Shown one piece after another: positions 11,341 through 45,740 of a stretch of 64,000 bases of DNA. Each line of letters begins with the position of its first letter. The first letter of the stretch is position 1. Below the pieces are notes generated by a model. It was given only the letters and a program-made list of their open reading frames with translations, made no database searches and was not told the origin of the DNA. Source of the stretch: Candidatus Staskawiczbacteria bacterium. Lineage in GTDB: Bacteria; Patescibacteriota; Minisyncoccia; Minisyncoccales; Staskawiczbacteraceae. The position numbers and the translations under genes are program-made. Where the stretch lies: positions 1,254-65,253 of the forward strand of contig CAVZWH010000014.1 of assembly GCA_963778905.1 (NCBI GenBank). The letters are read 5' to 3'.

Positions 11341-12106
11341 GGCTCTAGACTAGCAGTCTGTCATGGTATAATGACAAAATGTTAGTAAATAGTCTCAAAA
11401 ACTCTAAATTATCGACATTTAAAATTAAAAAAATTATTGAACACTTTTGTTTGGATATTAACGCCTCCAAAGCAGCTCCTCTGGTGGGCGTAAATCGCAA
11501 CACGATAAATTACTGGTACAACAGATTTCGTGTGGCAATTTATGCTCATCAGCACAAAGAATTTGAAAAGATTTTCGGAGAAGCGGAAGTGGACGAATTA
11601 TATTTCGGAGCAAGACGCAAACGCGGATTCCATGGCAAGCTGAAACGCGGACGAGGCACGCAGAAGCAACCGGTGTTCGGAATACTGAAACGCAACGGAC
11701 ATGTTTACACAGAAATCGTCCCTAACTGCAAAAAAGACATTCTGCAAAGCATTATCAGAGGGAAAGTAGATAAATCAGCAGTAATTTATTCGGACAGCTG
11801 GCGTAGCTATGACGGACTTGTTGATGTAGGATACGACAAACATTTCAGGGTTAATCACGGAGACAATGAATTTGCAAGGAAAGGTACAGGTATTCACATC
11901 AACGGCATTGAAAATTTCTGGAGCTTCACCAAACGTCGACTGGCTAAATTTAATGGTGTAAAAAAGAATTTCGAACTGCATCTTAAAGAGTTCAGAGTGG
12001 CGCTACGGAAAAACAAATGATACAATGAAAAAAGAATTGTGGAAAATTATTAAAAAATATTATTAAATTAATCGGCTACTTTGACTAGTCTTGCTAGTCT
12101 AGAGCC
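11341..12106 (+). mobile_element. IS1595-family insertion sequence (766 bp)
   Basis: Terminal inverted repeats GGCTCTAGACTAGCA (11341-11355) and TGCTAGTCTAGAGCC (12092-12106). TTAATTA lies on both flanks (11334-11340 and 12107-12113). Single DDE transposase ORF. Confidence 0.8.
11379..12020 (+). CDS. IS1595 (ISXO2-like DDE) transposase, C-terminus apparently frameshifted
   Basis: 213 aa with candidate DDE residues in EVDELYFG, IYSDSWRSY and NGIENFWS. An extended -10 (TGGTATAAT, 11364-11372) ends 6 nt before the ATG. See the finding on the 3' frameshift. Confidence 0.8.
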   Translation: MLVNSLKNSKLSTFKIKKIIEHFCLDINASKAAPLVGVNRNTINYWYNRFRVAIYAHQHKEFEKIFGEAEVDELYFGARRKRGFHGKLKRGRGTQKQPVFGILKRNGHVYTEIVPNCKKDILQSIIRGKVDKSAVIYSDSWRSYDGLVDVGYDKHFRVNHGDNEFARKGTGIHINGIENFWSFTKRRLAKFNGVKKNFELHLKEFRVALRKNK

Positions 12107-12142
12107 TTAATTAATATAATGTAATTTAGAAAATTTTGAAAC

Positions 12143-14935
12143 TTATGTCAAGTTTTTAAGATATTTTCCCGTGTAGCTGTTTTTAATTTTTGCGATGTCA
12201 GCTGGCGTGCCTTCTGCCACAATGTTTCCGCCCGCATCGCCGCCTTCGGGGCCCAAATCAATTAACCAATCAGAATTTTTTATCAAATCCAAATTGTGCT
12301 CAATCACCAAAACAGTATTTCCTTTTTCAACCAATCCCGCCAAAACAGAAATTAACTTTTTTATGTCGTCAAAGTGCAAACCGGTTGTCGGTTCGTCTAA
12401 AATATATAAAGTTCTGCCGGTTCCTTTTCTGGAAAGTTCTGTTGCCAATTTTACTCTCTGCGCTTCTCCGCCAGACAAAGATGTGGCCGATTGCCCAAGC
12501 GAAACATAAGACAAGCCAACTTCTTTCAAGGTTTTCATTTTTTCATAGAGGCCCGGAATATTTTTGAAAAATTCCATTGCTTCTTCAACTGTCATTTCCA
12601 AAACCTCGGCAATGTTTTTGTCTTTGTAAGCAATTTCTAAAACTTCTTTGCTGTATCTTTTGCCATGGCATTCCTCGCATTCAACATAAATGTCGGGCAA
12701 AAAATACATTTCAACTTTTTTCTGACCCTGGCCTTCGCAAGCCTCGCATCTGCCGCCTTTTACGTTAAAACTAAATCTGCCAGCTGAATATCCGCGGACT
12801 CTTGCCTCTTTTGTTTTGGTAAAAATATCTCTTATATATGAAAATGCTCCGGTATATGTTGCCGGGTTTGACCTTGGAGTTCTGCCAATCGGCGACTGGT
12901 CAACTAAAACAACTTTATTTAAATTTTCAATTCCCAAAATTTCTTTATGTTTTCCCGGCTCATCTTTTGCCCTGTAAAATTTTCTTAACAATGACTTTGC
13001 TAAAATATCATTTACCAAAGACGATTTTCCGGAACCGGAAACTCCGGTCACGCAAACAAATTTTCCTAAAGGAATTTTTACGTCAATATTTTTTAAGTTA
13101 TGTTCTTCTGCTCCTTTTATGACCAAAAATTTGGCAACGTCGGACGTAGCCTTTTTTATTTTTGGTTTATCAATTTCAACTTTTTTTCTGCCAGATAAAT
13201 AGTCGCCTGTAAGCGTATGAGCTTTCAATATTTCTTTGTACATTCCTTCAAAAACAACTTTTCCTCCGTGCTTTCCAGCTCCCGGCCCAATATCCACAAT
13301 CCAGTCAGATGCCCTCATTGTCTGAGGATCATGTTCTACGACAACAACAGTATTTCCCAATTCTTTTAATTTTATTAATGTGTCTATTAATTTATGCTGG
13401 TCTCTGGCATGCAAGCCGATTGACGGCTCGTCTAAAATATATAAAACTCCTGACAATTTTGAACCAATTTGAGTTGCCAATCTTATTCTTTGCTCTTCTC
13501 CGCCGGCCAAAGTTCCGGCTTTTCTGGACAAAGTCAAATAAGAAAGACCAACGTCATTCAAAAATTGCGTGCGGTCAATTATTTCTTTTGTAATCGGCTG
13601 ACTAACTTTTGTTTCGCCGGCATTTAGTTTTGCAGGAAGTTTTTCAAAAAATTCTTTTACTTTATCAACGGGAAAATCAACAATTTTATCAATAGATAAA
13701 TCAGCAACAGTCACTGCCAAAACTTCCTGCTTTAATCTTTTGCCTTGACACTTCGGACAAATTTTGATTACCATATATTGCTCAATTTCCTGGCGGGTCC
13801 AATCAGAATCTGTTTCATGATATCTTCTTTCCAAATTTGGAATCACTCCCTGAAATTCGCCGTCTCCGTGCAAAATAATATCCACAATTTTCTTGGGTAA
13901 ATCTTTTACTTCTTCATCCAAAGAAAAATTATATTTTGCCGCCAAGCCGGAAAGAATTGAGTAATAATATCCCTGCCTGCCAACTTTATGGGAAGCCCGC
14001 GACCACGGCCAGATAGCTCCTTCGGCAATTGTCAATCTTTTATTTGGAATTACTAATTCCGGATCAACTTCCAATTTTTCGCCAAGACCTGTGCATTCAG
14101 GGCAAGCTCCATAAGGATTGTTAAAAGAAAATAATCTTGGCTCTAATTCTGGCAAGGAAATTCCGCAATCTTCGCAGGCAAAATGCTCTGAAAAAATTAA
14201 GTCTTCTTTTTTAGAATTTACAATCACAATTCCTTTACCGAGGCGAAGAGCAATTTCCAAAGAGTCAACTAATCTTGACCTGTCCAAGTCTTTATCTAAA
14301 ACTAACCTGTCGGCGACAACTTCTATGTCGTGCTTTTTTTGTTTATCTATTGGCTTTTCCAGAGATTCTTCAACCGGAAAAATCGTCCCATCAATTCTCA
14401 CGCGGACAAATCCTCCTCTTTGAATTTCTTCCAATACTCCATAGTGCTCTCCTTTTTTGCTTCTGATAACCGGCCCTAAAATTGTAATTTCAGATTTTTT
14501 GGGTAATTTCAAAACTTGGTCAACAATCTGATCAACTGTCTGCCGCGAAATTAACTTTCCGCAATTTGGGCAGTGTGGTTTTCCAATTCTTGCATACAAA
14601 AGGCGCAGATAATCATAAATTTCTGTGATTGTGCCAACTGTTGAGCGCGGGTTATGGGTTGATTTTCTCTGGTCAATGGAAATTGCCGGCGAAATTCCTT
14701 CAATTTTATCAACATCCGGCTTATCCATAACTCCCAAAAACTGCCTGGCATAAGCTGACAAACTTTCAACATATCTTCTCTGGCCTTCGGCATACAAAGT
14801 ATCAAAAGCTAAAGAAGACTTTCCAGACCCAGAAAGCCCGGTAATTACAATCAATTTATTCTTCGGCAAATCTAAATCTATATTTTTTAGATTGTGAACT
14901 CTTGCGCCTCTAATTTTTATATATTCATTTTGCAT
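12143..14935 (-). CDS. uvrA: excinuclease ABC subunit A
   Basis: 930 aa; two ABC modules ([27 protein letters not shown]), zinc-finger cysteines and canonical UvrA N-terminus ([14 protein letters not shown]). Confidence 0.98.
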
Positions 14936-15015
14936 TGCAAAAAGTTTAGTGGTTCATTATACAACTTTTTTATATCGGGCGCAATAGCCACGCACACATG
15001 CAAATCATAAAATTT

Positions 15016-16062
15016 TTAAGAAACGTTAATCCAAAATCTATTTTTGAAATAATGCTGAATTTTGTGTGTATTGGCATGGGACAGAAATCCAAGATATGAC
15101 TGCAACGATTGGAGAAGCGAATTTCTGGAAATAAGTCCTTGATTGTATTTTTTTATTCTTGATTCAAATTTTTTTATAATTCTCTTTTTTGTTTTTGTTC
15201 TGACCAATCTATGCTTTTGAAAAACTACATAGCCAAGAAAATCTATTCCTTGGCTCGTTTTTCGTATTTTTGTTTTCTCTTCGTGAATTTTTAACAAAAG
15301 ATTTTCTTCTAAGAAATCTATTATTTGCGGCACAAGATTTTCTAAATATTTTCTATTTTCCGAAAGTATCAAAAAATCGTCTGTATAGCGAAGATAATAT
15401 TTTACTTTTAGTTCTTGTTTTATAAATTTATCAAGCTCGTTTAGATAAATATTGGCAAAAAGCTGAGAAGTTAAGTTTCCAATAGGAACTCCTTTATTAA
15501 TGCCCAACACAGAATAACTTGACGAAAAGCTTGATATAATCTGCTCTAAAAGCCAAAGTGTATCATTCTCCTTTACTTTCTTTTTTAAGATTGTGAGCAG
15601 AACATTATGGTCTATTGTGTCAAAAAACTTTTTAATGTCGCACTTCAGAGAAAAGCATGAAACCTTATTATTTTTGCTTACTTTTCTTAATATGCTTTGC
15701 AAAAAATCCACTCCTTTATGAGTGCCGTAGCCCTCCCTGCAAGAAAAAGATGCGGAGATAAAGCCAGCTTCAAAGATGGGATTTAGAACCTGGAAAACAG
15801 CATGGTGCAAAATGCGGTCTAAAACTTGCGCCTTATGGATGTTTCTTGGCTTCGGGTCTGAAATATTAAAAGAAATGTAATTTGAATGTTTGTAGGTTTT
15901 GCTTTTTAGCTCTCTGTGCAGTTTAAATATATTTTCTTCAAGGTTCCATTCAAAAAGCTGAACATCTTTTTTGTTTCTTTTGCCGTTTTTAAATTTATCC
16001 CAGGCTAAAAATAGGTTCTCTGAAGAAGTAATCTCGCTAAATAGGTCTCTATAAATCTTCAT
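15016..16062 (-). CDS. DGR-type reverse transcriptase
   Basis: RT motifs including YTDDFLIL, plus the DGR-diagnostic IGNLTSQLFANIYL motif ([ILV]GxxxSQ). Start moved to Met19 (MKIYRDLF...), because the longer ORF would overlap the divergent avd start. Confidence 0.9.
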   Translation of the reverse strand: MKIYRDLFSEITSSENLFLAWDKFKNGKRNKKDVQLFEWNLEENIFKLHRELKSKTYKHSNYISFNISDPKPRNIHKAQVLDRILHHAVFQVLNPIFEAGFISASFSCREGYGTHKGVDFLQSILRKVSKNNKVSCFSLKCDIKKFFDTIDHNVLLTILKKKVKENDTLWLLEQIISSFSSSYSVLGINKGVPIGNLTSQLFANIYLNELDKFIKQELKVKYYLRYTDDFLILSENRKYLENLVPQIIDFLEENLLLKIHEEKTKIRKTSQGIDFLGYVVFQKHRLVRTKTKKRIIKKFESRIKKYNQGLISRNSLLQSLQSYLGFLSHANTHKIQHYFKNRFWINVS

Positions 16063-16091
16063 AATAAAAAAATAACTAATTAATAAAAAAT

Positions 16092-16445
16092 ATGACAGAA
16101 GAATTTGATATACCAATATTTAAAAAAGTTTATGATTTGTATAAAACGTTTTATGCTTTCAGGACTACGGTTCCAAAACAAGAAAAATATACTGTCTGGC
16201 AAAAATCTGAAAATCTGATTTTGGAAATCTTGGAAGGGATATTATCGGCCAGCTATAAACATAAATTTGAGAAAACTCCCATATTAGAAAAAACTAGTCT
16301 AAAGCTTAATGTCCTCCGTGTTCTTATCAGGCTGATGAAAGATATTAAAGCAATCGATAATAAAAAGTATTCCTTGTTAGAGGAAAACATAGATGAAATT
16401 GGAAGGATGCTTGGCGGATGGCTGCGATCCACCGTCAGCAGATAG
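16092..16445 (+). CDS. avd: four-helix-bundle protein, Avd-like DGR accessory protein
   Basis: 117 aa, all-helical, ends ...EIGRMLGGWLRS as in Avd/23S-IVS four-helix-bundle proteins. Lies between TR and RT but on the opposite strand. Confidence 0.75.
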   Translation: MTEEFDIPIFKKVYDLYKTFYAFRTTVPKQEKYTVWQKSENLILEILEGILSASYKHKFEKTPILEKTSLKLNVLRVLIRLMKDIKAIDNKKYSLLEENIDEIGRMLGGWLRSTVSR

Positions 16446-16452
16446 ATTCAAT

Positions 16453-16490
16453 ATTACAAAAGGCATTCAAAAATGAATGCCTTTTGTAAT
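16453..16490. other. perfect 17-bp hairpin 13 nt downstream of the TR (minus-strand sense)
   Basis: ATTACAAAAGGCATTCA-AAAA-TGAATGCCTTTTGTAAT. No T-run on either strand, so it is not an obvious intrinsic terminator. It occupies the position of a DGR spacer RNA structure. Confidence 0.5.
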
Positions 16491-16502
16491 TGGTGAGGAG
16501 AG

Positions 16503-16650
16503 ACTTCGGGGCGAAGAACGACGAGGAGCCATAGTTGTCGTTGGCATTGTCGACATACTTCGTGTCGAACTTGACCTTGCCGTCGTTGAAGTTGAAGTAC
16601 GGAGCGTGGTCAAACTGGCCCGAGCCATCATCGCAAAATTTGCCTTTATC
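16503..16650 (-). repeat. DGR template repeat (TR)
   Basis: Ungapped alignment to 17070-17217 at offset 567. 27 of 28 mismatches fall where this copy has A on the minus strand. Confidence 0.9.
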
Positions 16651-16930
16651 CATCCTTGGGTTTGAAGTACTAATTAAAATTAGTACTTCAAACCCTTACA
16701 CTGGATATAGAGGTTTACTTCTGCGTTAGCAAACTATATCCTCTCAATCCTGTATTTTATTCGACGGCATTTCTTAAAAAAGAAAACCCGCCACAGATAA
16801 GGCAAGCAGTATCTCCCCAAGACAACGCGCTCTTTGCATCCGTGAACGCAAAGACTCTGGTTGTTTTATGAAAAGAGAGTTCGGTGACAGTCATCCTTAA
16901 ACAACTGTTCATTAACCTAATCTCAAATCA

Positions 16931-16958
16931 AGTATACACAAAATATATTTTTTTGCAA
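16931..16958 (-). promoter_or_regulatory. candidate sigma70 promoter for the TR-containing transcript
   Basis: On the minus strand: TTGCAA, 16 nt, TATACT. Overlaps the T-tract of the target-gene terminator. Confidence 0.3.
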
Positions 16959-16996
16959 AAAAAAGATGGCGTTGTCTGCAGAGCAAACAACGCCAT
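16957..16996 (-). terminator. rho-independent terminator of the DGR target gene
   Basis: On the minus strand: ATGGCGTTGT-(11 nt)-ACAACGCCAT followed by T8. Confidence 0.6.
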
Positions 16997-17067
16997 GTGC
17001 CGCGAACGAAAGGTTCAAGGAATAAGAATTCGAAAGAACCAAGCGTTCGAAGCTTGAGGAACAGGTT

Positions 17068-17979
17068 TTACTGCGGGGCGAAGAACGACGAGGAGCCATA
17101 GCGGTCGTAGGCAATGCCGACATACCCCGTGCCGAACCCGACCTCGCCGACGCGGAAGAAGAAGCACGGAGCGCGGCCAAACCGGCCCGAGCCATCATCG
17201 CAAAACTCGTCGCCAGCGCAATCGATGTCCAGCTCTTCCCAGCGAACGAGTCGCTCGGGATGAGTCAGGATAATGGAACCGACTGCGAGACTGGTGAGGC
17301 CGAACTCGTTGGTCTTAAAGACCTCGCGAGCCCGACGTACCGAACGTCCGCGGTGGCGCATGCCGAGCTGACCAGCGATGATCAGGATGTCGCCCTTTTG
17401 CGTTTGGGTGATCTGATTGATCATCTGTGCCGTGCGAGTGTGAACTCGCAGGTGAGCCGTGTCGATCTGGCCTTGGCGGTAGTTGTAGAACGACCGCGAA
17501 CCAGCGACCTTCTCGTGAACCAGTTGGACAGCGCGGCAGTACTTCTCGGTCGGGTCTTTGACCTCCGGGAAAAACCTGGAAGCCAAAGCATCAACCGACG
17601 GAATGGCGAACCATCCTTCGGCGCCTTCAGGAAGTTCGGGAAGATTTTTCGCGAACTCAAGGGCTTGACTCGGGTCGAGGTTGAAGATCGCGGCAAGTGC
17701 CTTGATCTGCGCCTCGATCTGCTTGGGCCCCTTGTACTCCTTGGGGTACGTGTAGCTGGAACAAACTTCTTCGTTCTTGAACCTGTCGGTGAGACAATTC
17801 TCGGCGATGAAGCTGCTTACCAGATCGGAAAGACCCGGAGCTTCGTTAACTCGCTGAGATTCCTCCTCGGACAGTCCGGCCTTGTTGTAGGCAGCCTCGA
17901 CAACCGAGATGAACTTGAGACCCTTTGGGTCCCGAGCTGTAACAATAGACGGAGCCAATGTCGTAGACATCGGAGCCAT
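17068..17979 (-). CDS. DGR variable (target) protein, family unknown
   Basis: 303 aa; GGAGAAAGG Shine-Dalgarno; the C-terminal roughly 49 codons are the VR. No signal peptide seen, no domain recognised by eye. GC is far above the window background. Confidence 0.85.
   Translation of the reverse strand: MAPMSTTLAPSIVTARDPKGLKFISVVEAAYNKAGLSEEESQRVNEAPGLSDLVSSFIAENCLTDRFKNEEVCSSYTYPKEYKGPKQIEAQIKALAAIFNLDPSQALEFAKNLPELPEGAEGWFAIPSVDALASRFFPEVKDPTEKYCRAVQLVHEKVAGSRSFYNYRQGQIDTAHLRVHTRTAQMINQITQTQKGDILIIAGQLGMRHRGRSVRRAREVFKTNEFGLTSLAVGSIILTHPERLVRWEELDIDCAGDEFCDDGSGRFGRAPCFFFRVGEVGFGTGYVGIAYDRYGSSSFFAPQ
17070..17217 (-). repeat. DGR variable repeat (VR)
   Basis: See the TR entry. This is the 3' end of the target ORF and abuts its stop codon. 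Confidence 0.9.
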
Positions 17980-18066
17980 CCTTTCTCCGCGTCAAACGCG
18001 GTTTAACAAAGTGCATGTTGCGAAAGCCTGCAACTGGGCAACCAAACACTCGTTTAGTATGAATAT

Positions 18067-18095
18067 ATTATATCAAATGGACACACTCTTGTCAA
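18067..18095 (-). promoter_or_regulatory. consensus sigma70 promoter upstream of the DGR target gene
   Basis: On the minus strand: TTGACA (18095-18090), 17 nt, TATAAT (18072-18067), about 85 nt upstream of the ATG at 17979. Confidence 0.6.
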
Positions 18096-18139
18096 TGATT
18101 TTGACTTGAAAAATTGCCAATTTATGTTAATCTAAAAAC

Positions 18140-19444
18140 ATGGATAAATTCAAATTTCTGCCGAAATCAAAACTCAACAACCTCCCGAAAACAAGCGGAG
18201 TATATTCTTTTTATGATAAAAAAGAACTTGTTTATATTGGCAAGGCAATAAATATACAAAACAGAGTTAAAAACCACTTTCATCGGGTTAAATACCGCGA
18301 AGCGGTAATTTCGCCTTCGGCGAAATTATTTAACCCGATGAAGCAACCGTCTTACAGAGATGATTTATTTATAGAAAAAGTAAATAAAATTAGTTTTTTT
18401 GTGACCAATTCAGAAATTGAAGCGTTAATTTTGGAAGCAAATTTAATTAAAAAATATCAGCCAAAATTCAATGTTGTCTGGCGAGATGATAAAAATTATT
18501 TTTATGTGGCGATAACAAAAGGCGAAAAGCCGATTGTTTATATAACACACCAAAAAAATGAGCCGGCAGAATACATTGGACCTTTTGTGGAGGGAAATGC
18601 CTTAAAAAAAACTTTAAGGTTTTTGAGAAGAGTGTTCCCCTACTACACAACAAAAAATCATCCTAAAATAAAATGCACCTATTGCCATTTGGGTTTATGC
18701 CCGGGGCCAAATCCAAATTTAACAGAATACAAAAAAAATATAAAAAAATTAATTTCTATTTTGCAGGGAAAAAGAAATGCTGTTTTAAATTCTCTAAAAA
18801 AAGAAATGAAAAAACTTTCAAGAGAGAACAGATTTGAGGAAGCTGGAAAAATTAGGGACAGAATTTTTAATTTACAGCAGGTAATGTCGCACACAAATGT
18901 AATCAGCAGCGAAAAAGTTAGTGCGAGGTCGGATCTCGCCCAAATTTTAGGCAAGATTCTGCATATGGAGAATAAAATAGAAAGAATTGAGTGTTATGAT
19001 GTTTCCAATATCCAGGGAAAATCTGCAACCGGGTCCATGATTGTTTTTGCAGATGGAAAACCAGATAAAAGTCAGTACAAAAAATTTAAGATAAAAATGG
19101 AAAATGAACCGAACGACATCGCTATGTTAAAAGAAGTGCTGGAAAGAAGATTTGCGCATCCAGAATGGAAATATCCCGAGGTAATTTTAATAGACGGCGG
19201 AATCGGCCAACTAAACGTTGGCCTCAAAATCAAAAATCAAAATCCAAAAATCAAAAATATTTTATTTATATCTTTGGCGAAAAGAAACAAAGAATTATTT
19301 ATTGAGGGCAAGCAAAAACCAATTTTGTTAAAATCTTTGCCTCAAGAAATTTATAATCTGATTTTGCAGCTTGACGACGAAGCGCATAAATTCGCAATAG
19401 CTTACCACAAAAAACTAAGAAGTCGGGATTTATTATTGCACTAA
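18140..19444 (+). CDS. uvrC: excinuclease ABC subunit C (short form, no C-terminal HhH domain visible)
   Basis: 434 aa; GIY-YIG (GVYSFYDKKELVYIGKA), UVR domain (RFEEAGKIRDRIFNLQ) and endonuclease domain (IECYDVSNIQG, ILIDGGIGQL). Contains a 20-codon palindromic insertion. Confidence 0.9.
   Translation: MDKFKFLPKSKLNNLPKTSGVYSFYDKKELVYIGKAINIQNRVKNHFHRVKYREAVISPSAKLFNPMKQPSYRDDLFIEKVNKISFFVTNSEIEALILEANLIKKYQPKFNVVWRDDKNYFYVAITKGEKPIVYITHQKNEPAEYIGPFVEGNALKKTLRFLRRVFPYYTTKNHPKIKCTYCHLGLCPGPNPNLTEYKKNIKKLISILQGKRNAVLNSLKKEMKKLSRENRFEEAGKIRDRIFNLQQVMSHTNVISSEKVSARSDLAQILGKILHMENKIERIECYDVSNIQGKSATGSMIVFADGKPDKSQYKKFKIKMENEPNDIAMLKEVLERRFAHPEWKYPEVILIDGGIGQLNVGLKIKNQNPKIKNILFISLAKRNKELFIEGKQKPILLKSLPQEIYNLILQLDDEAHKFAIAYHKKLRSRDLLLH
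18281..18340 (+). repeat. 60-nt in-frame palindromic insertion inside uvrC
   Basis: CATCGGGTTAAA..TTTAACCCGATG forms a 12-bp outer stem. It encloses CCGC-GAA-GCGG and TAATTTCGCC-TTC-GGCGAAATTA hairpins. Encodes HRVKYREAVISPSAKLFNPM. Confidence 0.65.
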
Positions 19445-19472
19445 TGCCAAAAATCTGCTACAATATATAAAG

Positions 19473-19862
19473 ATGAAGAGGTTATTCTCTCAAGTTGTCG
19501 CTGCCATACTTGGATTATGGCTGGCGACATTATTTGTGCCCGGGGTTGTAATCAGGACATATCCTAAATCAAACTTCTTCGGTTTTCCTTTAACAGCACA
19601 ATGGGAAATTTTTTTGGTCTTAGGAATTGTTTTAGGATTGCTAAACTATTTTCTAAAACCGCTTTTGAAAACGCTGGCTCTGCCTTTGGAAATAATTACC
19701 CTCGGACTTTTTACAATTGTGATAAATATGGCTCTGTTGTGGCTTTTGGACGTAATGTTTGACGAATTATATGTGCCGCTATTGTTGCCGCTTTTGTACA
19801 CAACATTAATTATTTGGGGGTTAAATATTATTATTAGTTTTTTTATAGCAAAAAATAAATAA
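19473..19862 (+). CDS. DUF360 / phage-holin-4-like membrane protein
   Basis: 129 aa; four TM helices; strings typical of the family (LLNYFLKPLLKTLALPLEIITLGLFTIVINMALLWLL). Confidence 0.6.
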   Translation: MKRLFSQVVAAILGLWLATLFVPGVVIRTYPKSNFFGFPLTAQWEIFLVLGIVLGLLNYFLKPLLKTLALPLEIITLGLFTIVINMALLWLLDVMFDELYVPLLLPLLYTTLIIWGLNIIISFFIAKNK

Positions 19863-19866
19863 AAAA

Positions 19867-20085
19867 ATAAATCAAATTTTATTTTATACACAAATCGCTG
19901 TTTCTGTAATTTTAATTGTGCTTATTGCAATACAGCAAAGAGGAGCTACTTTAGGCGCCGGATTTGGCGGTGGCGGAGAAATTTATTCCACCAAGCGCGG
20001 AGCGCAAAAAAAAATATACTACGCAACAATAGCAATTGCAACTATTTTTCTCGTTTTGGGCGTATTAAACATATTGATACAATAG
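19867..20085 (+). CDS. secG: preprotein translocase subunit SecG (no canonical start codon)
   Basis: Not in the ORF track. Hand translation: (I)NQILFYTQIAVSVILIVLIAIQQRGATLGAGFGGGGEIYSTKRGAQKKIYYATIAIATIFLVLGVLNILIQ*, a typical SecG layout. The frame opens after TAG at 19846-19848 and contains only ATA/ATT as possible starts. Confidence 0.6.
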   Translation: MNQILFYTQIAVSVILIVLIAIQQRGATLGAGFGGGGEIYSTKRGAQKKIYYATIAIATIFLVLGVLNILIQ

Positions 20086-20094
20086 ATTTAACAA

Positions 20095-22092
20095 ATGAAA
20101 AAACTTCCAAGTTTTTCTCAATGGAAGCAAATTTTTAAGATATTAAAAGGAACTGAAAGAATATTTTTTTTAGTTTTTGTTGGTTTAGCTTTGATATCTG
20201 CAATTTATCTTGCAACTGATTTTTATATAAATAATACAAAAACAGCTCCTGCCTATGGCGGAAGTTATACGGAAGGAGTTGTTGGCCAGCCACGATTTAT
20301 AAATCCTATTTACGGAGAGACAGATGACGTTGACAGAACATTAATTGATTTAGTTTATTCGGGGCTGATGGCATATGACAAAGATGGAAAAATAATTAAC
20401 GACCTGGTAAAAAGTTATCAGGTTTCTGATGATGGAAAAACTTATACTTTTCAGTTAAAAGATAATCTTTACTGGCAAGATGGAATGCCCTTAACGGCTG
20501 ACGATGTTATTTACACAATAAAAACAATTCAAAATTCCGATTACAAAAGTCCCCAAAGAGCAAATTGGCTTAACGTGGATGCAGAAAAAATATCCGACAA
20601 ATCTTTTTCTTTTTCTCTTGATGCCCCATATAATTCTTTTTTAGAAAACTGCACGGTAAAAATAATTCCTTCTCATATATGGGAAAAAGTTTTGCCTGAA
20701 AATTTTGCTTTGTCTACTTATAATTTACAACCTATTGGTTCCGGCCCTTATACTCTTTCGGGATTGGAACAAACAAATACTGGTTTTATAAAAAACCTAA
20801 GTTTAACAGCCAACAACAAATATTACAATAAAGTGCCTTATATATCTAACATTTATTTTCAGTTCTTTGCAAACAAAGATGACCTGATTAAGGCTGCCAA
20901 CCAAAAAACAATTGATGGATTTTCTATCACAGATTTAGATGACAATGAGGCTTTGGCTGAAAAACAAGTTCGCCAGGGCTGGTCTGCAAATGAAAAATTT
21001 GATGTTTACTCTTTTACAATGCCAAGATATTTTGCCGTGTTCTTTAACACTCAGAAATCAAAAATTTTATCGGACAGCAATATAACGCAGGCTCTTAATT
21101 ATTCGGTTAACAAACAAGAGTTGGCACAAAAAATAAGCGACTCGTTCAAAGAAAAAATTTCTGTTGTTGACTCGCCAATTCTTCCTGATTATTTTGGCTA
21201 TGCGCAGCCTACAATAACTTATGATTTTAATACAGACACAGCAAACAAACTTTTAGACAAATCTGGATATGTGGATTCGGGCAATAATACAAGGGCAAAA
21301 GCAAATGATAAAAAACCAGCTTTTCAATTCAAAAGTTATTTGTCTCAAGGATCCAAAGGAAACGAAGTTGTGGAGCTGCAAGGATGTTTGGCAAGATTGG
21401 ATCCAAGCTTTGCAACTCTTTTGCAGGGAGAAACCAGTGGAAAATATGGAACAGGAACCGGAAACGCAGTAACAGCGTTTCAAAAAAAATATATGCCCGG
21501 CGTGCCTTCAACTGGCGAGGTTGGAGCAGGAACAAGAAAGGAATTAAACCAACTTTGTCTGGTTCCCCAAGCCAATTCTTTGCCATTGAAGTTTACTTTA
21601 ACTACCATAGACCAGCCTCAGCTTGTTATGGCGGCTAACCTTCTGAAAGATTACTGGCAAAAAGTTGGGGTCACCGTAGACGTAAAAGCATTGGATTTAT
21701 CAGACTTAAAAGACGCAATTAAAAACAGAGATTATGATGCCTTGCTTTACGGTCAAGCTCTTGGAAGCCTGCCCGATTTATATCCTTTTTGGCATTCTAC
21801 GCAAATAAATGATCCCGGATTAAATCTTGCAGAATATCAAAATAAAAATGTCGACCAATTGTTAAAAGATTCCAGAGAAACGCAGGATGAGCAAGCAAAA
21901 GCGCAAGATTACGAAAAACTGCAAGACACAATACTTTCAGACGCCCCTGCCCTGTTTTTATACAACCCTGATTACATTTATTGGGTTTCAGAAAAAATAA
22001 AAGGCGTAGACACAACAAAAATTGTCGACCCGGCAAAAAGATTTGCTAATATAGAAAATTGGTACATACAAACCCGAAGAGTATGGAAATAA
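20095..22092 (+). CDS. family-5 (OppA/DppA-like) ABC substrate-binding protein with an inserted peptidoglycan-binding domain
   Basis: 665 aa; N-terminal TM and SBP_bac_5-like sequence throughout. The insert GSKGNEVVELQGCLARL...TGNAVTAFQKKYMP...GEVGAGTRKELNQL looks like PG_binding_1. Confidence 0.75.
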   Translation: MKKLPSFSQWKQIFKILKGTERIFFLVFVGLALISAIYLATDFYINNTKTAPAYGGSYTEGVVGQPRFINPIYGETDDVDRTLIDLVYSGLMAYDKDGKIINDLVKSYQVSDDGKTYTFQLKDNLYWQDGMPLTADDVIYTIKTIQNSDYKSPQRANWLNVDAEKISDKSFSFSLDAPYNSFLENCTVKIIPSHIWEKVLPENFALSTYNLQPIGSGPYTLSGLEQTNTGFIKNLSLTANNKYYNKVPYISNIYFQFFANKDDLIKAANQKTIDGFSITDLDDNEALAEKQVRQGWSANEKFDVYSFTMPRYFAVFFNTQKSKILSDSNITQALNYSVNKQELAQKISDSFKEKISVVDSPILPDYFGYAQPTITYDFNTDTANKLLDKSGYVDSGNNTRAKANDKKPAFQFKSYLSQGSKGNEVVELQGCLARLDPSFATLLQGETSGKYGTGTGNAVTAFQKKYMPGVPSTGEVGAGTRKELNQLCLVPQANSLPLKFTLTTIDQPQLVMAANLLKDYWQKVGVTVDVKALDLSDLKDAIKNRDYDALLYGQALGSLPDLYPFWHSTQINDPGLNLAEYQNKNVDQLLKDSRETQDEQAKAQDYEKLQDTILSDAPALFLYNPDYIYWVSEKIKGVDTTKIVDPAKRFANIENWYIQTRRVWK

Positions 22093-43805: not shown

Positions 43806-45740
43806 CTAGTGCGAAGTTGCAATTGTTGGCACCTGTATACACAATGCCTCAGACCCCGAATTCTGACATAATCCTGAAACAGTTAACGATGCTGTTTTGT
43901 ACGACGGAGACAAACCGAGCAGGTTGTCGCCCTGGTAAACTGCTTCTAAGGTGTGAGTTCCTGAGAAGGACGGAGTGTAGGTGTAGGTGGCTGTGCCACT
44001 TGAGTTTGTGGTAACAGGAGTGCTGTTGATGAGGGTTGCAGAATCATTGTCTCTAAATGTAATTGGTTCGCCTGCAACAGCTGAAGACAGCGTGGCTGTC
44101 AGAGTTACTGCGGTTCCCACTGAAATGCTTGATGAGCTTAAAGTAAAGGTGTTGATGGTAGTTGGGTTGCTCTGGGCCGGAGTCTGCACGCACAATATCT
44201 CAGAGCCCGAGGTTGAACAGCTGCCGGAAATGGCAAGCTGGGCTGTTTTGTACGACGGAGACAAACCGAGCAGGTTGTCGCCCTGGTAAACTGCTTCTAA
44301 GGTGTGAGTTCCTGAGAAGGACGGAGTGTAGGTGTAGGTGGCTGTGCCACTTGAGTTTGTGGTAACAGGAGTGCTGTTGATGAGGGTTGCAGAATCATTG
44401 TCTCTAAATGTAATTGGTTCGCCTGCAACAGCTGAAGACAGCGTGGCTGTCAGAGTTACTGCGGTTCCCACTGAAATGCTTGATGAGCTTAAAGTAAAGG
44501 TGTTGATGGTAGTTGGGTTGCTCTGGGCCGGAGTCTGCACGCACAATATCTCAGAGCCCGAGGTTGAACAGCTGCCGGAAATGGCAAGCTGGGCTGTTTT
44601 GTACGACGGAGACAAACCGAGCAGGTTGTCGCCCTGGTAAACTGCTTCTAAGGTGTGAGTTCCTGAGAAGGACGGAGTGTAGGTGTAGGTGGCTGTGCCA
44701 CTTGAGTTTGTGGTAACAGGAGTGCTGTTGATGAGGGTTGCAGAATCATTGTCTCTAAATGTAATTGGTTCGCCTGCCACAGCTGAAGACAGCGTGGCTG
44801 TCAGAGTTACTGCGGTTCCCACTGAAATGCTTGATGAGCTTAAAGTAAAGGTGTTGATGGTTGTTGGGTTGCTTGGCGGTGGTATCTGTACACATAACAA
44901 CATAGATCCTGAGGTGGCCAGCACACCACAACCTGTTACATTAAAAGGCCCTATTTGAGATTGAGACGGCAGAGTTTCTATTTGAGCGTCCCCATTATAT
45001 TTGGCCTGAATAGTAATATTGCCTGTTGCGCTAAAAGTAATATAATAATATGCTCTAGCTACTCCGAGAGAATCAGTGGTTGCTGTTCCTATGGTAATTG
45101 GCGAACCTGGATTTGTTATGTCAGTAAAAGTGATTGTTTGGCCAGCTATTACCGGACCATTTGTGTATTTCAAAGCAGCCGAAAGATTAATTGTAGAACC
45201 CTGTGTTATTGGTAAAGGAGAAGCTGTAAAATTAATTATTTGGGTTTGCGCTGCGTTGCTTATGACAAAACTTGTTATATGATTATAATCTGTTCCTGAA
45301 GATTCTTGCATGCTGTTATTTAACAAATTATCTGTCGCAGAAATGTCAACCCAGTAAGTGGCGTTGGGATCCCAAACAGAAGTATTAGAAACATCAATAA
45401 TCAAGCCAAAAGTGCCGTCTCCGGCGGCGCCATCGCGATGCGAGCCGTCGTCGGACATTGTGCCATCTATAGAATATACGTCATTCATATATTGCACAGG
45501 ACTGCTGTTGGGCACCTCAATGTTTGCTACTGAAGAGTAAACTCCGGAAACATCCGTGACATCAGCCGTTATAACAATAAAATTAGAATATTTATAAACT
45601 TTAACGTTTGCAACGCTTGGATATGCAGTTCCGCCGGGAGGGACAACTTCAAAAGTTGGCATGGCATAACATGCATTAAAAGAAAAACAGAAAATAAGCG
45701 ATACAAAAATTAAAATTGTATAAAAGAAAAACTTTCTCAT
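43806..45740 (-). CDS. secreted Ig-like-repeat surface protein (candidate pilus-associated adhesin)
   Basis: 644 aa; signal peptide; four Ig-like modules, of which the last three are near-identical 117-aa repeats. Immediately downstream of the minor pilin genes. Confidence 0.7.
   Translation of the reverse strand: MRKFFFYTILIFVSLIFCFSFNACYAMPTFEVVPPGGTAYPSVANVKVYKYSNFIVITADVTDVSGVYSSVANIEVPNSSPVQYMNDVYSIDGTMSDDGSHRDGAAGDGTFGLIIDVSNTSVWDPNATYWVDISATDNLLNNSMQESSGTDYNHITSFVISNAAQTQIINFTASPLPITQGSTINLSAALKYTNGPVIAGQTITFTDITNPGSPITIGTATTDSLGVARAYYYITFSATGNITIQAKYNGDAQIETLPSQSQIGPFNVTGCGVLATSGSMLLCVQIPPPSNPTTINTFTLSSSSISVGTAVTLTATLSSAVAGEPITFRDNDSATLINSTPVTTNSSGTATYTYTPSFSGTHTLEAVYQGDNLLGLSPSYKTAQLAISGSCSTSGSEILCVQTPAQSNPTTINTFTLSSSSISVGTAVTLTATLSSAVAGEPITFRDNDSATLINSTPVTTNSSGTATYTYTPSFSGTHTLEAVYQGDNLLGLSPSYKTAQLAISGSCSTSGSEILCVQTPAQSNPTTINTFTLSSSSISVGTAVTLTATLSSAVAGEPITFRDNDSATLINSTPVTTNSSGTATYTYTPSFSGTHTLEAVYQGDNLLGLSPSYKTASLTVSGLCQNSGSEALCIQVPTIATSH
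43885..44880. repeat. tandem repeat, 351-bp unit, about 2.8 copies
   Basis: Shadow ORFs at 43987, 44338 and 44689 are spaced 351 nt apart, and the first two are identical over 100 aa. I saw one synonymous difference (44778 C versus A). Confidence 0.9.

Follow-up and report, generated by a model that had tools for sequence, protein, structure and literature searches.

A compositionally and historically mosaic diversity-generating retroelement with an exchangeable GC-rich target gene body in genomes of the Candidate Phyla Radiation

The diversity-generating retroelement (DGR) analyzed here lies between the uvrA and uvrC genes in a 64,000-nt stretch of the genome of a Candidatus Staskawiczbacteria bacterium (assembly GCA_963778905.1, contig CAVZWH010000014.1, positions 1,254 to 65,253 of the forward strand; hereafter the window). 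What is new in this element is its mosaic make-up, in both composition and history: the open reading frame (ORF) of its target gene lies ~20 GC points above the enzyme genes of the element and above the host genome, and the body of the gene is an exchangeable GC-rich unit seen in many genomes of the Candidate Phyla Radiation (CPR; Patescibacteria) and in two target families. Within the family of the window's target, the constant part of the gene, which precedes the variable repeat (VR), has demonstrably been replaced horizontally and in place, independently of the unit formed by the template repeat (TR), the avd gene, and the reverse transcriptase (RT) gene. Regarding the origin of the GC-richness, the explanation we favor, to which we give about an even chance, is that target alleles of GC-rich origin are exchanged between genomes and decay toward host composition, leaving the GC excess as a legacy refreshed by replacement. 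The features on which the argument turns are listed below in window coordinates.

12143–14935, minus strand: uvrA flank, at host composition (GC 0.383).
15016–16062, minus strand: DGR RT, 348 a.a from the ATG at 16062 (GC 0.315).
16092–16445, plus strand: avd, antisense to the TR and the RT (GC 0.336).
16505–16638, minus strand: TR, on the same strand as the RT (GC 0.530; 0.69 at non-A positions).
16966–16996, minus strand: intrinsic terminator after the target, with a 14-bp stem followed by the T run CTTTTTTTT.
17068–17979, minus strand: DGR target gene, 303 a.a, of a CPR-specific family.
17072–17205, minus strand: VR, the last 45 codons of the target, in frame and in direct repeat with the TR (GC 0.649).
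17206–17979, minus strand: constant part of the target, a compositionally anomalous module swapped among genomes (GC 0.566).
17260–18006, plus strand: shadow ORF of 248 a.a opposite the target, in the codon-aligned antisense frame; not a gene.
17980–18066, minus strand: 5′ leader of the target mRNA, in which a short GC hairpin (CCGCG..CGCGG) directly precedes the ribosome-binding site.
18067–18095, minus strand: target promoter (TTGACA, 17-nt spacer, TG-TATAAT), a 12/12 match to the sigma-70 consensus with an extended −10 element.
18140–19444, plus strand: uvrC flank, at host composition (GC 0.330) and divergent from the target gene.

The target ORF has a GC content of 0.577, with 0.595, 0.441, and 0.694 at its first, second, and third codon positions (GC1, GC2, and GC3), in a window whose overall GC content is 0.368, which places it 7.5 standard deviations above the remaining 912-nt windows of the 64 kb. 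Every other ORF of at least 120 a.a in the window has a GC3 of 0.17–0.42. The base make-up of the target ORF is A 0.204, T 0.219, C 0.298, and G 0.279, A and T being nearly equal. An earlier reading of this DNA from its letters alone (the original prediction) had proposed such a split from hand counts in sample 60-nt lines (40/60 and 33/60 G+C in the target, 18/60 in the RT, and 21/60 in avd); the counts were exact and the split is real, with the target outside the range of the other ORFs of the window and with the RT, avd, uvrA, and uvrC genes not sharing its compositional history. A single GC-rich block running from the TR to the target start codon had also been described. Both of its ends are indeed GC-rich, but the block is not continuous, comprising two separate segments (the 134-nt TR and the 912-nt ORF) divided by a 429-nt spacer with a GC content of 0.39. 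Its framing by promoter and terminator sequence holds, as does the lower GC content of the 160 nt of leader and promoter (0.37). Just one further GC bump exists in the window (0.45–0.49), explained by a gene for a 644-a.a protein (43806–45740, minus strand), which has a hydrophobic N-terminus, likely a signal peptide, and three near-identical tandem repeats of ~100 a.a rich in Ser, Thr, and Gly.

GC steps as sharp as these could reflect a chimeric contig, and the 248-a.a ORF opposite the target could be a real gene through which the GC content is kept; we consider the chance of either negligible. Logan assembly L148, which is independent and stems from another sequencing run, is 99.92% identical to window positions 12081–21172 (9.1 kb) with the gene order unchanged, and as it matches over both junctions, the junctions are real and a chimera is excluded; the same pattern moreover recurs in 144 independent assemblies. 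The plus-strand ORF exists and, as predicted, is a shadow, given that its frame, followed through 41 homologues, contains 3.1 stops per gene on average and is interrupted in 37 of them and open in four. The longest open stretch in one subfamily is 83 codons, and TCA is as frequent in the targets as other A-ending codons. Selection on codon usage for translation alone is likewise unlikely, as the genes read as groEL and rpoB/rpoC (by size and position only) have GC3 values of 0.28–0.33 and, in the target, GC1 and GC2 have shifted along with GC3. L148 is the sole second assembly of the strain, and its VR is identical to that of the window. The two assemblies show seven differences, four of which fall within 8 nt of the target gene (window 17848–17855; L148 3318–3325) and alter Gln42, which is invariant in the family, and the nearby Val44; this cluster could represent a micro-conversion tract or an assembly error.

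The GC excess extends across the target family. A word-indexed search returned 1,843 homologues of the target (1,818 clusters at 50% identity), and the named homologues in protein searches are all from CPR/Patescibacteria; we put the few locus titles that read Gammaproteobacteria or Margulisiibacteriota down to wrong labels or wrong binning. In 57/57 species-representative genomes, the GC content of the homologue exceeds that of its flanks (mean +0.15, up to +0.30), and once metagenome and viral contigs are added, it does so in all 144 close-homologue loci (minimum +0.032), with the target GC3 exceeding the host GC3 in 94/94 loci (mean +0.29). The family means for GC1, GC2, and GC3 (0.62, 0.41, and 0.69, respectively) follow the pattern that whole-genome codon-position trends lead one to expect of a gene from a ~60% GC genome. 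Aligning 36 full-length loci on their start and stop codons revealed an excess of +0.07 to +0.21 within the ORF; the excess starts ~50 nt ahead of the start codon and is approximately zero (within about ±0.09, none sustained) upstream of −50 and from the stop codon on. Along the constant part, GC3 is uniform, with no gradient toward the VR. In the 19 loci having both RT and target, the RT and avd genes follow the GC content of the host (0.29–0.49) and the adjacent targets are at 0.51–0.66; the RT on average lies 0.03 below its host. Approximately half of the loci are orphan targets, with neither RT nor TR within 10 kb, and these are still GC-rich. Among similar low-GC hosts, the GC3 of target alleles varies between 0.25 and 0.88. 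A GC-rich phage vehicle was rejected, as the homologues on viral contigs sit in AT-richer flanks in 4/4 cases. Among four distant members of the family, one (L235) is fully host-like (0.480 vs. 0.488), and the others exceed their hosts by only 0.06–0.11.

A second CPR target family, unrelated to the first (~153 a.a, 123 homologues), has the same cassette layout and is also GC-richer than its flanks, in 8/8 copies (+0.04 to +0.28, GC3 up to 0.91; the founding locus is L156, 4612–5073, and further loci are L229–L234). Some copies of this family are orphans located beside dnaN, infB, or a ribosomal-protein/secY operon. Several genomes carry two to four copies of a target, some of them in tandem (L009, L014, L041, and L229) and others in one Spechtbacteria genome (L027, L033, L040, and L043), with only one copy adjoining an RT; the extra copies may be remote targets or substrates of gene conversion. 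Near some homologues (L011, L027, L043, and L051) we noted further ORFs with outlying GC3, which had no match in Pfam.

The target body and the TR-avd-RT unit have followed separate paths within the family. The identity of the RT and that of the target are moderately correlated between loci (r = 0.52), and TR identity tracks the RT (r = 0.84) more than the target (r = 0.62). Loci L029 and L045 share 90% identity in the RT, 92% in Avd, and 91% in the TR, vs. 55% in the target; conversely, L003 and L005 share 93% in the target and 57% in the RT. The clearest example is the syntenic pair L024 and L029, in which 11 neighboring genes, including the RT, are saturated at a third-position identity of 0.46–0.58 (family baseline 0.45–0.48) and the target stands at 0.93. 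The constant parts of these two targets are 93–100% identical and the flanks 45–83%, with the step in identity falling at the ORF start and the VR start. The reversed arrangement occurs in L029 and L045, where the VR, spacer, TR, avd, and RT are 73–93% identical and the target body 33–70%, with a breakpoint ~100 nt upstream of the VR. Given these discordances, the target body has been replaced apart from the TR-avd-RT unit. Alleles that are 80–90% identical also occupy unrelated neighborhoods, in hosts that carry the labels of different CPR classes (Uhr-, Vogel-, Jorgensen-, and Paceibacteria) and have GC contents of 0.36–0.53. This incongruence is seen for pairs within the family; the divergence of the window's own allele from that of its nearest host relative, L001 (groEL 85% and uvrA 78% identical), equals that of the neighboring genes. 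In L001 (5096–12958), the entire DGR cassette is inverted and sits downstream of uvrC, and in the window (12143–19444) it lies between uvrA and uvrC, indicating that the complete cassette has also moved locally. In one subfamily (L017, L019, L020, L024, L029, L030, and L062), the target starts are preceded, at a distance of ~95 nt, by a conserved 5′ leader that contains a GC-rich hairpin (ACCCGAC...GTCGGGAC); its loop variants are shuffled against the ORF types, so that the mosaicism reaches into the leader.

The original prediction had offered, among other options, a single recent acquisition in this genome, in which the target gene was captured together with its TR by a resident RT and avd or came from a GC-rich partner or host organism. 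The target stands apart from the window in composition, an IS1595-family transposase is encoded 3 kb away, and the L001 cassette is on the opposite side of uvrC, all of which would suit such an event. We nevertheless consider it highly improbable. The anomaly is family-wide rather than peculiar to this genome, and the nearest relative of the window's allele outside its own strain shares only 74% amino-acid identity with a third-position identity of 0.59 (near saturation), with no sign of a recent donor, while the RT–target pairing is already present in L001. The homologues are almost all in CPR contexts, none of them GC-rich. Independent exchange of the target is borne out, but its joint capture with the TR is not, given that the TR follows the RT.

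Nor is the GC-richness of the TR a foreign trait, as the same prediction had supposed. In a comparison set of 69 other DGR loci, found through their RT in viral contigs, the TR has a GC content of ~0.51–0.69 in 67 (the two lower values being 0.37 and 0.45), even in contexts of 0.31–0.34. The RT in these loci is slightly AT-richer than its surroundings (−0.04), and the target body differs from its flanks by just +0.027 ± 0.042, exceeding +0.1 in only 3/69; two of these three are small CPR-type targets, one of the 300-a.a family (L066) and the other the founder of the 153-a.a family (L156). GC-richness of the TR and VR is therefore a general DGR property, and it is the GC-rich target body that is unusual. 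Within the target family, 1% of TR third codon positions are A and 52% are C, and the share of AAC among AAY codons is 75% in TRs vs. 34% in host genes. GC-rich segments flanking the mutagenic region have been described in DGRs (Wu et al., PMC5758913).

Another possibility is that the RT occasionally copies the whole target transcript, eroding adenines over evolutionary time and thereby raising GC. The limits of the excess roughly coincide with those of the transcription unit, and A is the most depleted base at third positions of the target (0.48× that of neighboring genes), as this would predict. However, T is depleted at third positions as well (0.61×), C rises most (1.95×, vs. 1.34× for G), overall A and T are nearly equal in the ORF, a gradient from the VR is absent, and the VR–TR spacer does not rise above background GC, making this explanation very improbable.

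Our favored explanation, that of exchanged alleles decaying toward host composition, would work as follows. By analogy with studied DGRs, the RT and Avd would copy the TR RNA into cDNA, misreading adenines, and the cDNA would overwrite the VR. The cassette is a mosaic of two units, which would account for its compositional split. The first unit, TR-avd-RT, is inherited together, with the RT and avd at or slightly under host GC; the TR would stay GC-rich as the master copy of the VR, in which, as in other DGRs, third-position adenines are excluded and C is preferred. The second unit, the constant part of the target, belongs to a CPR-wide family whose alleles resemble genes of a ~60% GC genome and presumably had a GC-rich source. 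Such alleles pass from one CPR genome to another by homologous replacement, which would stay within the ORF because the incoming allele ceases to be homologous at the conserved N-terminus and at the VR, and the resident TR could adopt any incoming target allele, since it rewrites the VR. Resident alleles would then drift to host composition, and the GC excess would be refreshed by repeated allele replacement rather than generated by the host.

The direction of recent change supports import followed by decay. In shallow clusters, third positions of the target have undergone 119 GC-to-AT vs. 51 AT-to-GC changes, implying an equilibrium GC3 of 0.43–0.49 (95% interval 0.32–0.57) vs. the current 0.66–0.70; the recent changes thus run toward host composition. 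The corresponding RT estimate (0.39–0.46) is near that of the target. The wide spread of allele GC3 among similar low-GC hosts and the host-like composition of L235 also fit decay. Equilibria were taken from the shallow clusters, and whole-tree parsimony was discarded, as it pushed both target and RT toward 0.5.

A number of points weigh against this explanation. Parsimony equilibria are biased to 0.5, and the estimates rest on 170 target events and an RT control of ~50. A GC-rich donor context was not found, the maximum flank GC being 0.554 among the 144 loci, which represent a small part of the ~1,800 clusters. A donor search with the most GC-rich allele (L051, GC3 0.90) across 5.8 billion protein clusters returned CPR matches only, none of them above 69% identity. 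Synonymous-saturated subfamilies are nearly all still GC-rich. The window and L001, both low-GC hosts, hold mutually nearest RT and target, and both targets have a GC3 of ~0.7, a pairing that could equally be consistent with long-term maintenance. The TR, situated in an AT-rich module, keeps C over T at synonymous-equivalent positions, so some GC constraint at the nucleotide level acts on DGR substrates. The same excess in the unrelated 153-a.a family argues against a historical accident of a single family. Finally, mobile DNA is said to be usually AT-richer than its host, not GC-richer, an observation attributed to Rocha and Danchin in 2002.

Several of these points bear on a different explanation, in which the GC-richness is actively maintained at equilibrium and not a legacy, either by selection on the nucleic-acid composition of DGR targets or by GC-biased gene conversion that the intense exchange of alleles at the ORF would drive. 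Selection on composition was one of the options of the original prediction, and the selected traits could possibly be retrohoming, transcript behavior, or expression control, though we do not favor this. The excess at all 144 loci with no native GC-rich context, the persistence of GC-richness in deep, saturated subfamilies, its recurrence in the 153-a.a family, and the C-rich third positions of TRs that have co-evolved with an AT-rich RT all agree with maintenance. Furthermore, all three codon positions are shifted, as under general GC pressure; the logit GC3 offset is 1.45 in targets with an RT nearby vs. 1.16 in those without (p = 0.01, with no phylogenetic correction); the target ORF is a demonstrated recombination hot spot; and there is a precedent in the vls cassettes of Borrelia, with 49% GC in a 28.6% GC genome, which its authors read as selected (PMC11499132). 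On the other hand, the 119 vs. 51 third-position changes place the equilibrium close to host and RT values, and AT-to-GC changes do not clearly exceed GC-to-AT changes in derived-allele frequency (p = 0.18 in cluster B; p = 0.05 in cluster A, with n = 5 and poor polarization). The signature of GC-biased conversion, an excess or a higher frequency of AT-to-GC changes, was not seen in the shallow clusters, where power is low. Allele GC3 spanning 0.25 to 0.88 in similar hosts is unlike the effect of a constant force, one distant member is at host composition, 66 of the 69 other DGRs lack a target excess above 0.1, and the GC3 gradient toward the VR is absent. On balance, we regard maintenance as a tentative alternative and rather doubtful.

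The element itself is a canonical CPR-type DGR, with every testable defining feature found. The RT matches RVT_1 (3.3e-25) and phrog_1423 ‘Reverse transcriptase’ (8e-114, residues 1–344), and its translation contains IGNLTSQLFANIY and YTDDF motifs; the patterns SQLFAN[IV]Y and DPKxR[HN]IHK retrieved 598 DGR-like RT relatives. Avd scores 86.1 bits against the NCBIfam DivGenRetAVD equivalog model (cut-off 80) and 68 bits against Pfam bAvd (cut-off 40), and an antisense avd lies between the TR and RT in 19/19 loci with RT and target, the window included. The TR-avd-RT module is downstream of the target, except in L003 and L033, where it is upstream and inverted. The TR/VR repeat spans 136 nt (16503–16638 vs. 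17070–17205) at 85% identity, and 23 of its 28 mismatches are at TR adenines, the remaining five lying at the two ends of the local alignment. The 3′ ends of the TR and VR share a GC-rich invariant stretch, CTATGGCTCCTCGTCGTTCTTCGCCCCG, with divergence after the next codon, and this stretch would serve as the initiation of mutagenic homing (IMH) element, which it resembles. An alignment of 25 homologues shows the C-terminus of the target to be hypervariable. The DGR may be active in this strain. The target had no match in Pfam, NCBIfam, or PHROG, and its AlphaFold model (mean predicted local distance difference test score of 63.8) had no fold match in the PDB at E ≤ 0.001. Three family members (P0041, P0059, and P0344) are labelled ‘ribosomal protein S16’ by the Joint Genome Institute, although no Pfam or NCBIfam model matches them; they may correspond to the ‘ribosomal protein-related’ CPR DGR target of Wu et al.

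Like published CPR DGRs (the ‘CPR set’ of Wu et al. 2018, PMC5758913; clade 2 of Roux et al., bioRxiv 10.1101/2020.04.01.020958), this element has an RT, Avd, and adenine-specific TR/VR differences, with the VR at the 3′ end of a small gene without assigned function and a chromosomal site among housekeeping genes. It differs from them, as published, in that the target body and the TR-avd-RT unit reassort. Wu et al. concluded that DGR genes co-evolve largely as a cassette and took a GC deviation of at least 5% over the whole DGR as a sign of transfer (PMC5758913), and a large metagenome survey of DGRs is silent on GC content (bioRxiv 10.1101/2020.04.01.020958). Full-text searching of the accessible DGR literature found, among the papers listed, no report of a compositional split within a cassette or of target-body replacement. 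Mtd-like phage DGRs and others among the 69 comparison loci share the GC-rich TR and VR, whatever the context, and the AT-leaning RT, but their target bodies match the surrounding genome.

Outside of DGRs, the closest resemblance is to Borrelia vlsE/vls, a hypervariable, recombination-driven GC-rich island in an AT-rich genome (cassettes 49.1% GC, genome 28.6%, ascribed by the authors to selection; PMC11499132). This is a resemblance only, with no homology implied: variation in vls comes from silent cassettes through segmental gene conversion and not from reverse transcription, and vls shows strong GC skew (0.52) and G runs, neither of which is present in the window's target. The targets also behave in part like the horizontally acquired genes that, in the model credited to Lawrence and Ochman, reportedly ameliorate to recipient composition, being atypical at three codon positions, phylogenetically incongruent, and subject to substitutions toward the host. 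They differ from such genes in that the unit is the body of a single ORF replaced in place by homologous exchange, and in that the target is GC-richer than every host sampled among the 144 loci, where the donor lineage was not found.

The diversified gene and the machinery that diversifies it thus have separate histories, contrary to the usual view of the cassette as one unit, and an RT tree is no proxy for the history of the target, which alters how DGR evolution and host range in CPR are to be inferred. In practice, a sharp, ORF-limited GC island in these AT-rich and poorly annotated genomes can mark a DGR target or an orphan copy, even far from an RT. There is a modest possibility that such islands are a functional signature of CPR DGR targets, kept by a process tied to hypervariable, exchanged loci; if so, these targets would be comparable, in prokaryotes, to the GC-rich Borrelia vls cassettes or to the recombination hot spots of eukaryotes. 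Were the GC-richness maintained, it would indicate either that retrohoming has a hidden requirement at the nucleic-acid level or that gene conversion with a strong bias operates in bacteria.

The remaining features of the cassette surround the TR.

16453–16490, no strand assigned: perfect 17-bp hairpin immediately beyond the TR and the avd stop codon, which probably terminates transcription in both directions or forms a structural part of the TR RNA.
16658–16695, no strand assigned: perfect 18-bp inverted repeat directly upstream of the TR, folding at −33.9 kcal/mol.
16931–16959, minus strand: promoter-like site (9/12 match) immediately after the target terminator, which could drive the TR RNA.

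A hairpin downstream of the TR occurs in 17/17 loci examined (the window and loci within L001–L052), ~10–25 nt away and with a stem of 10–16 bp. The stem sequence varies by locus while pairing is kept, and a conserved motif, CCGAAGT(C/A)TCTC, precedes it; this conserved hairpin may be a shared terminator of the TR RNA and avd or a structural element of the DGR RNA. Other loci likewise fold upstream of the TR and have in common a GATGGA motif just before it. Further out, the IS1595-family (ISXO2-like) transposase is encoded at 11379–12020 on the plus strand, between a groEL-like gene and uvrA; a tblastn search with it gave no match in L001, whose locus spans the same interval.

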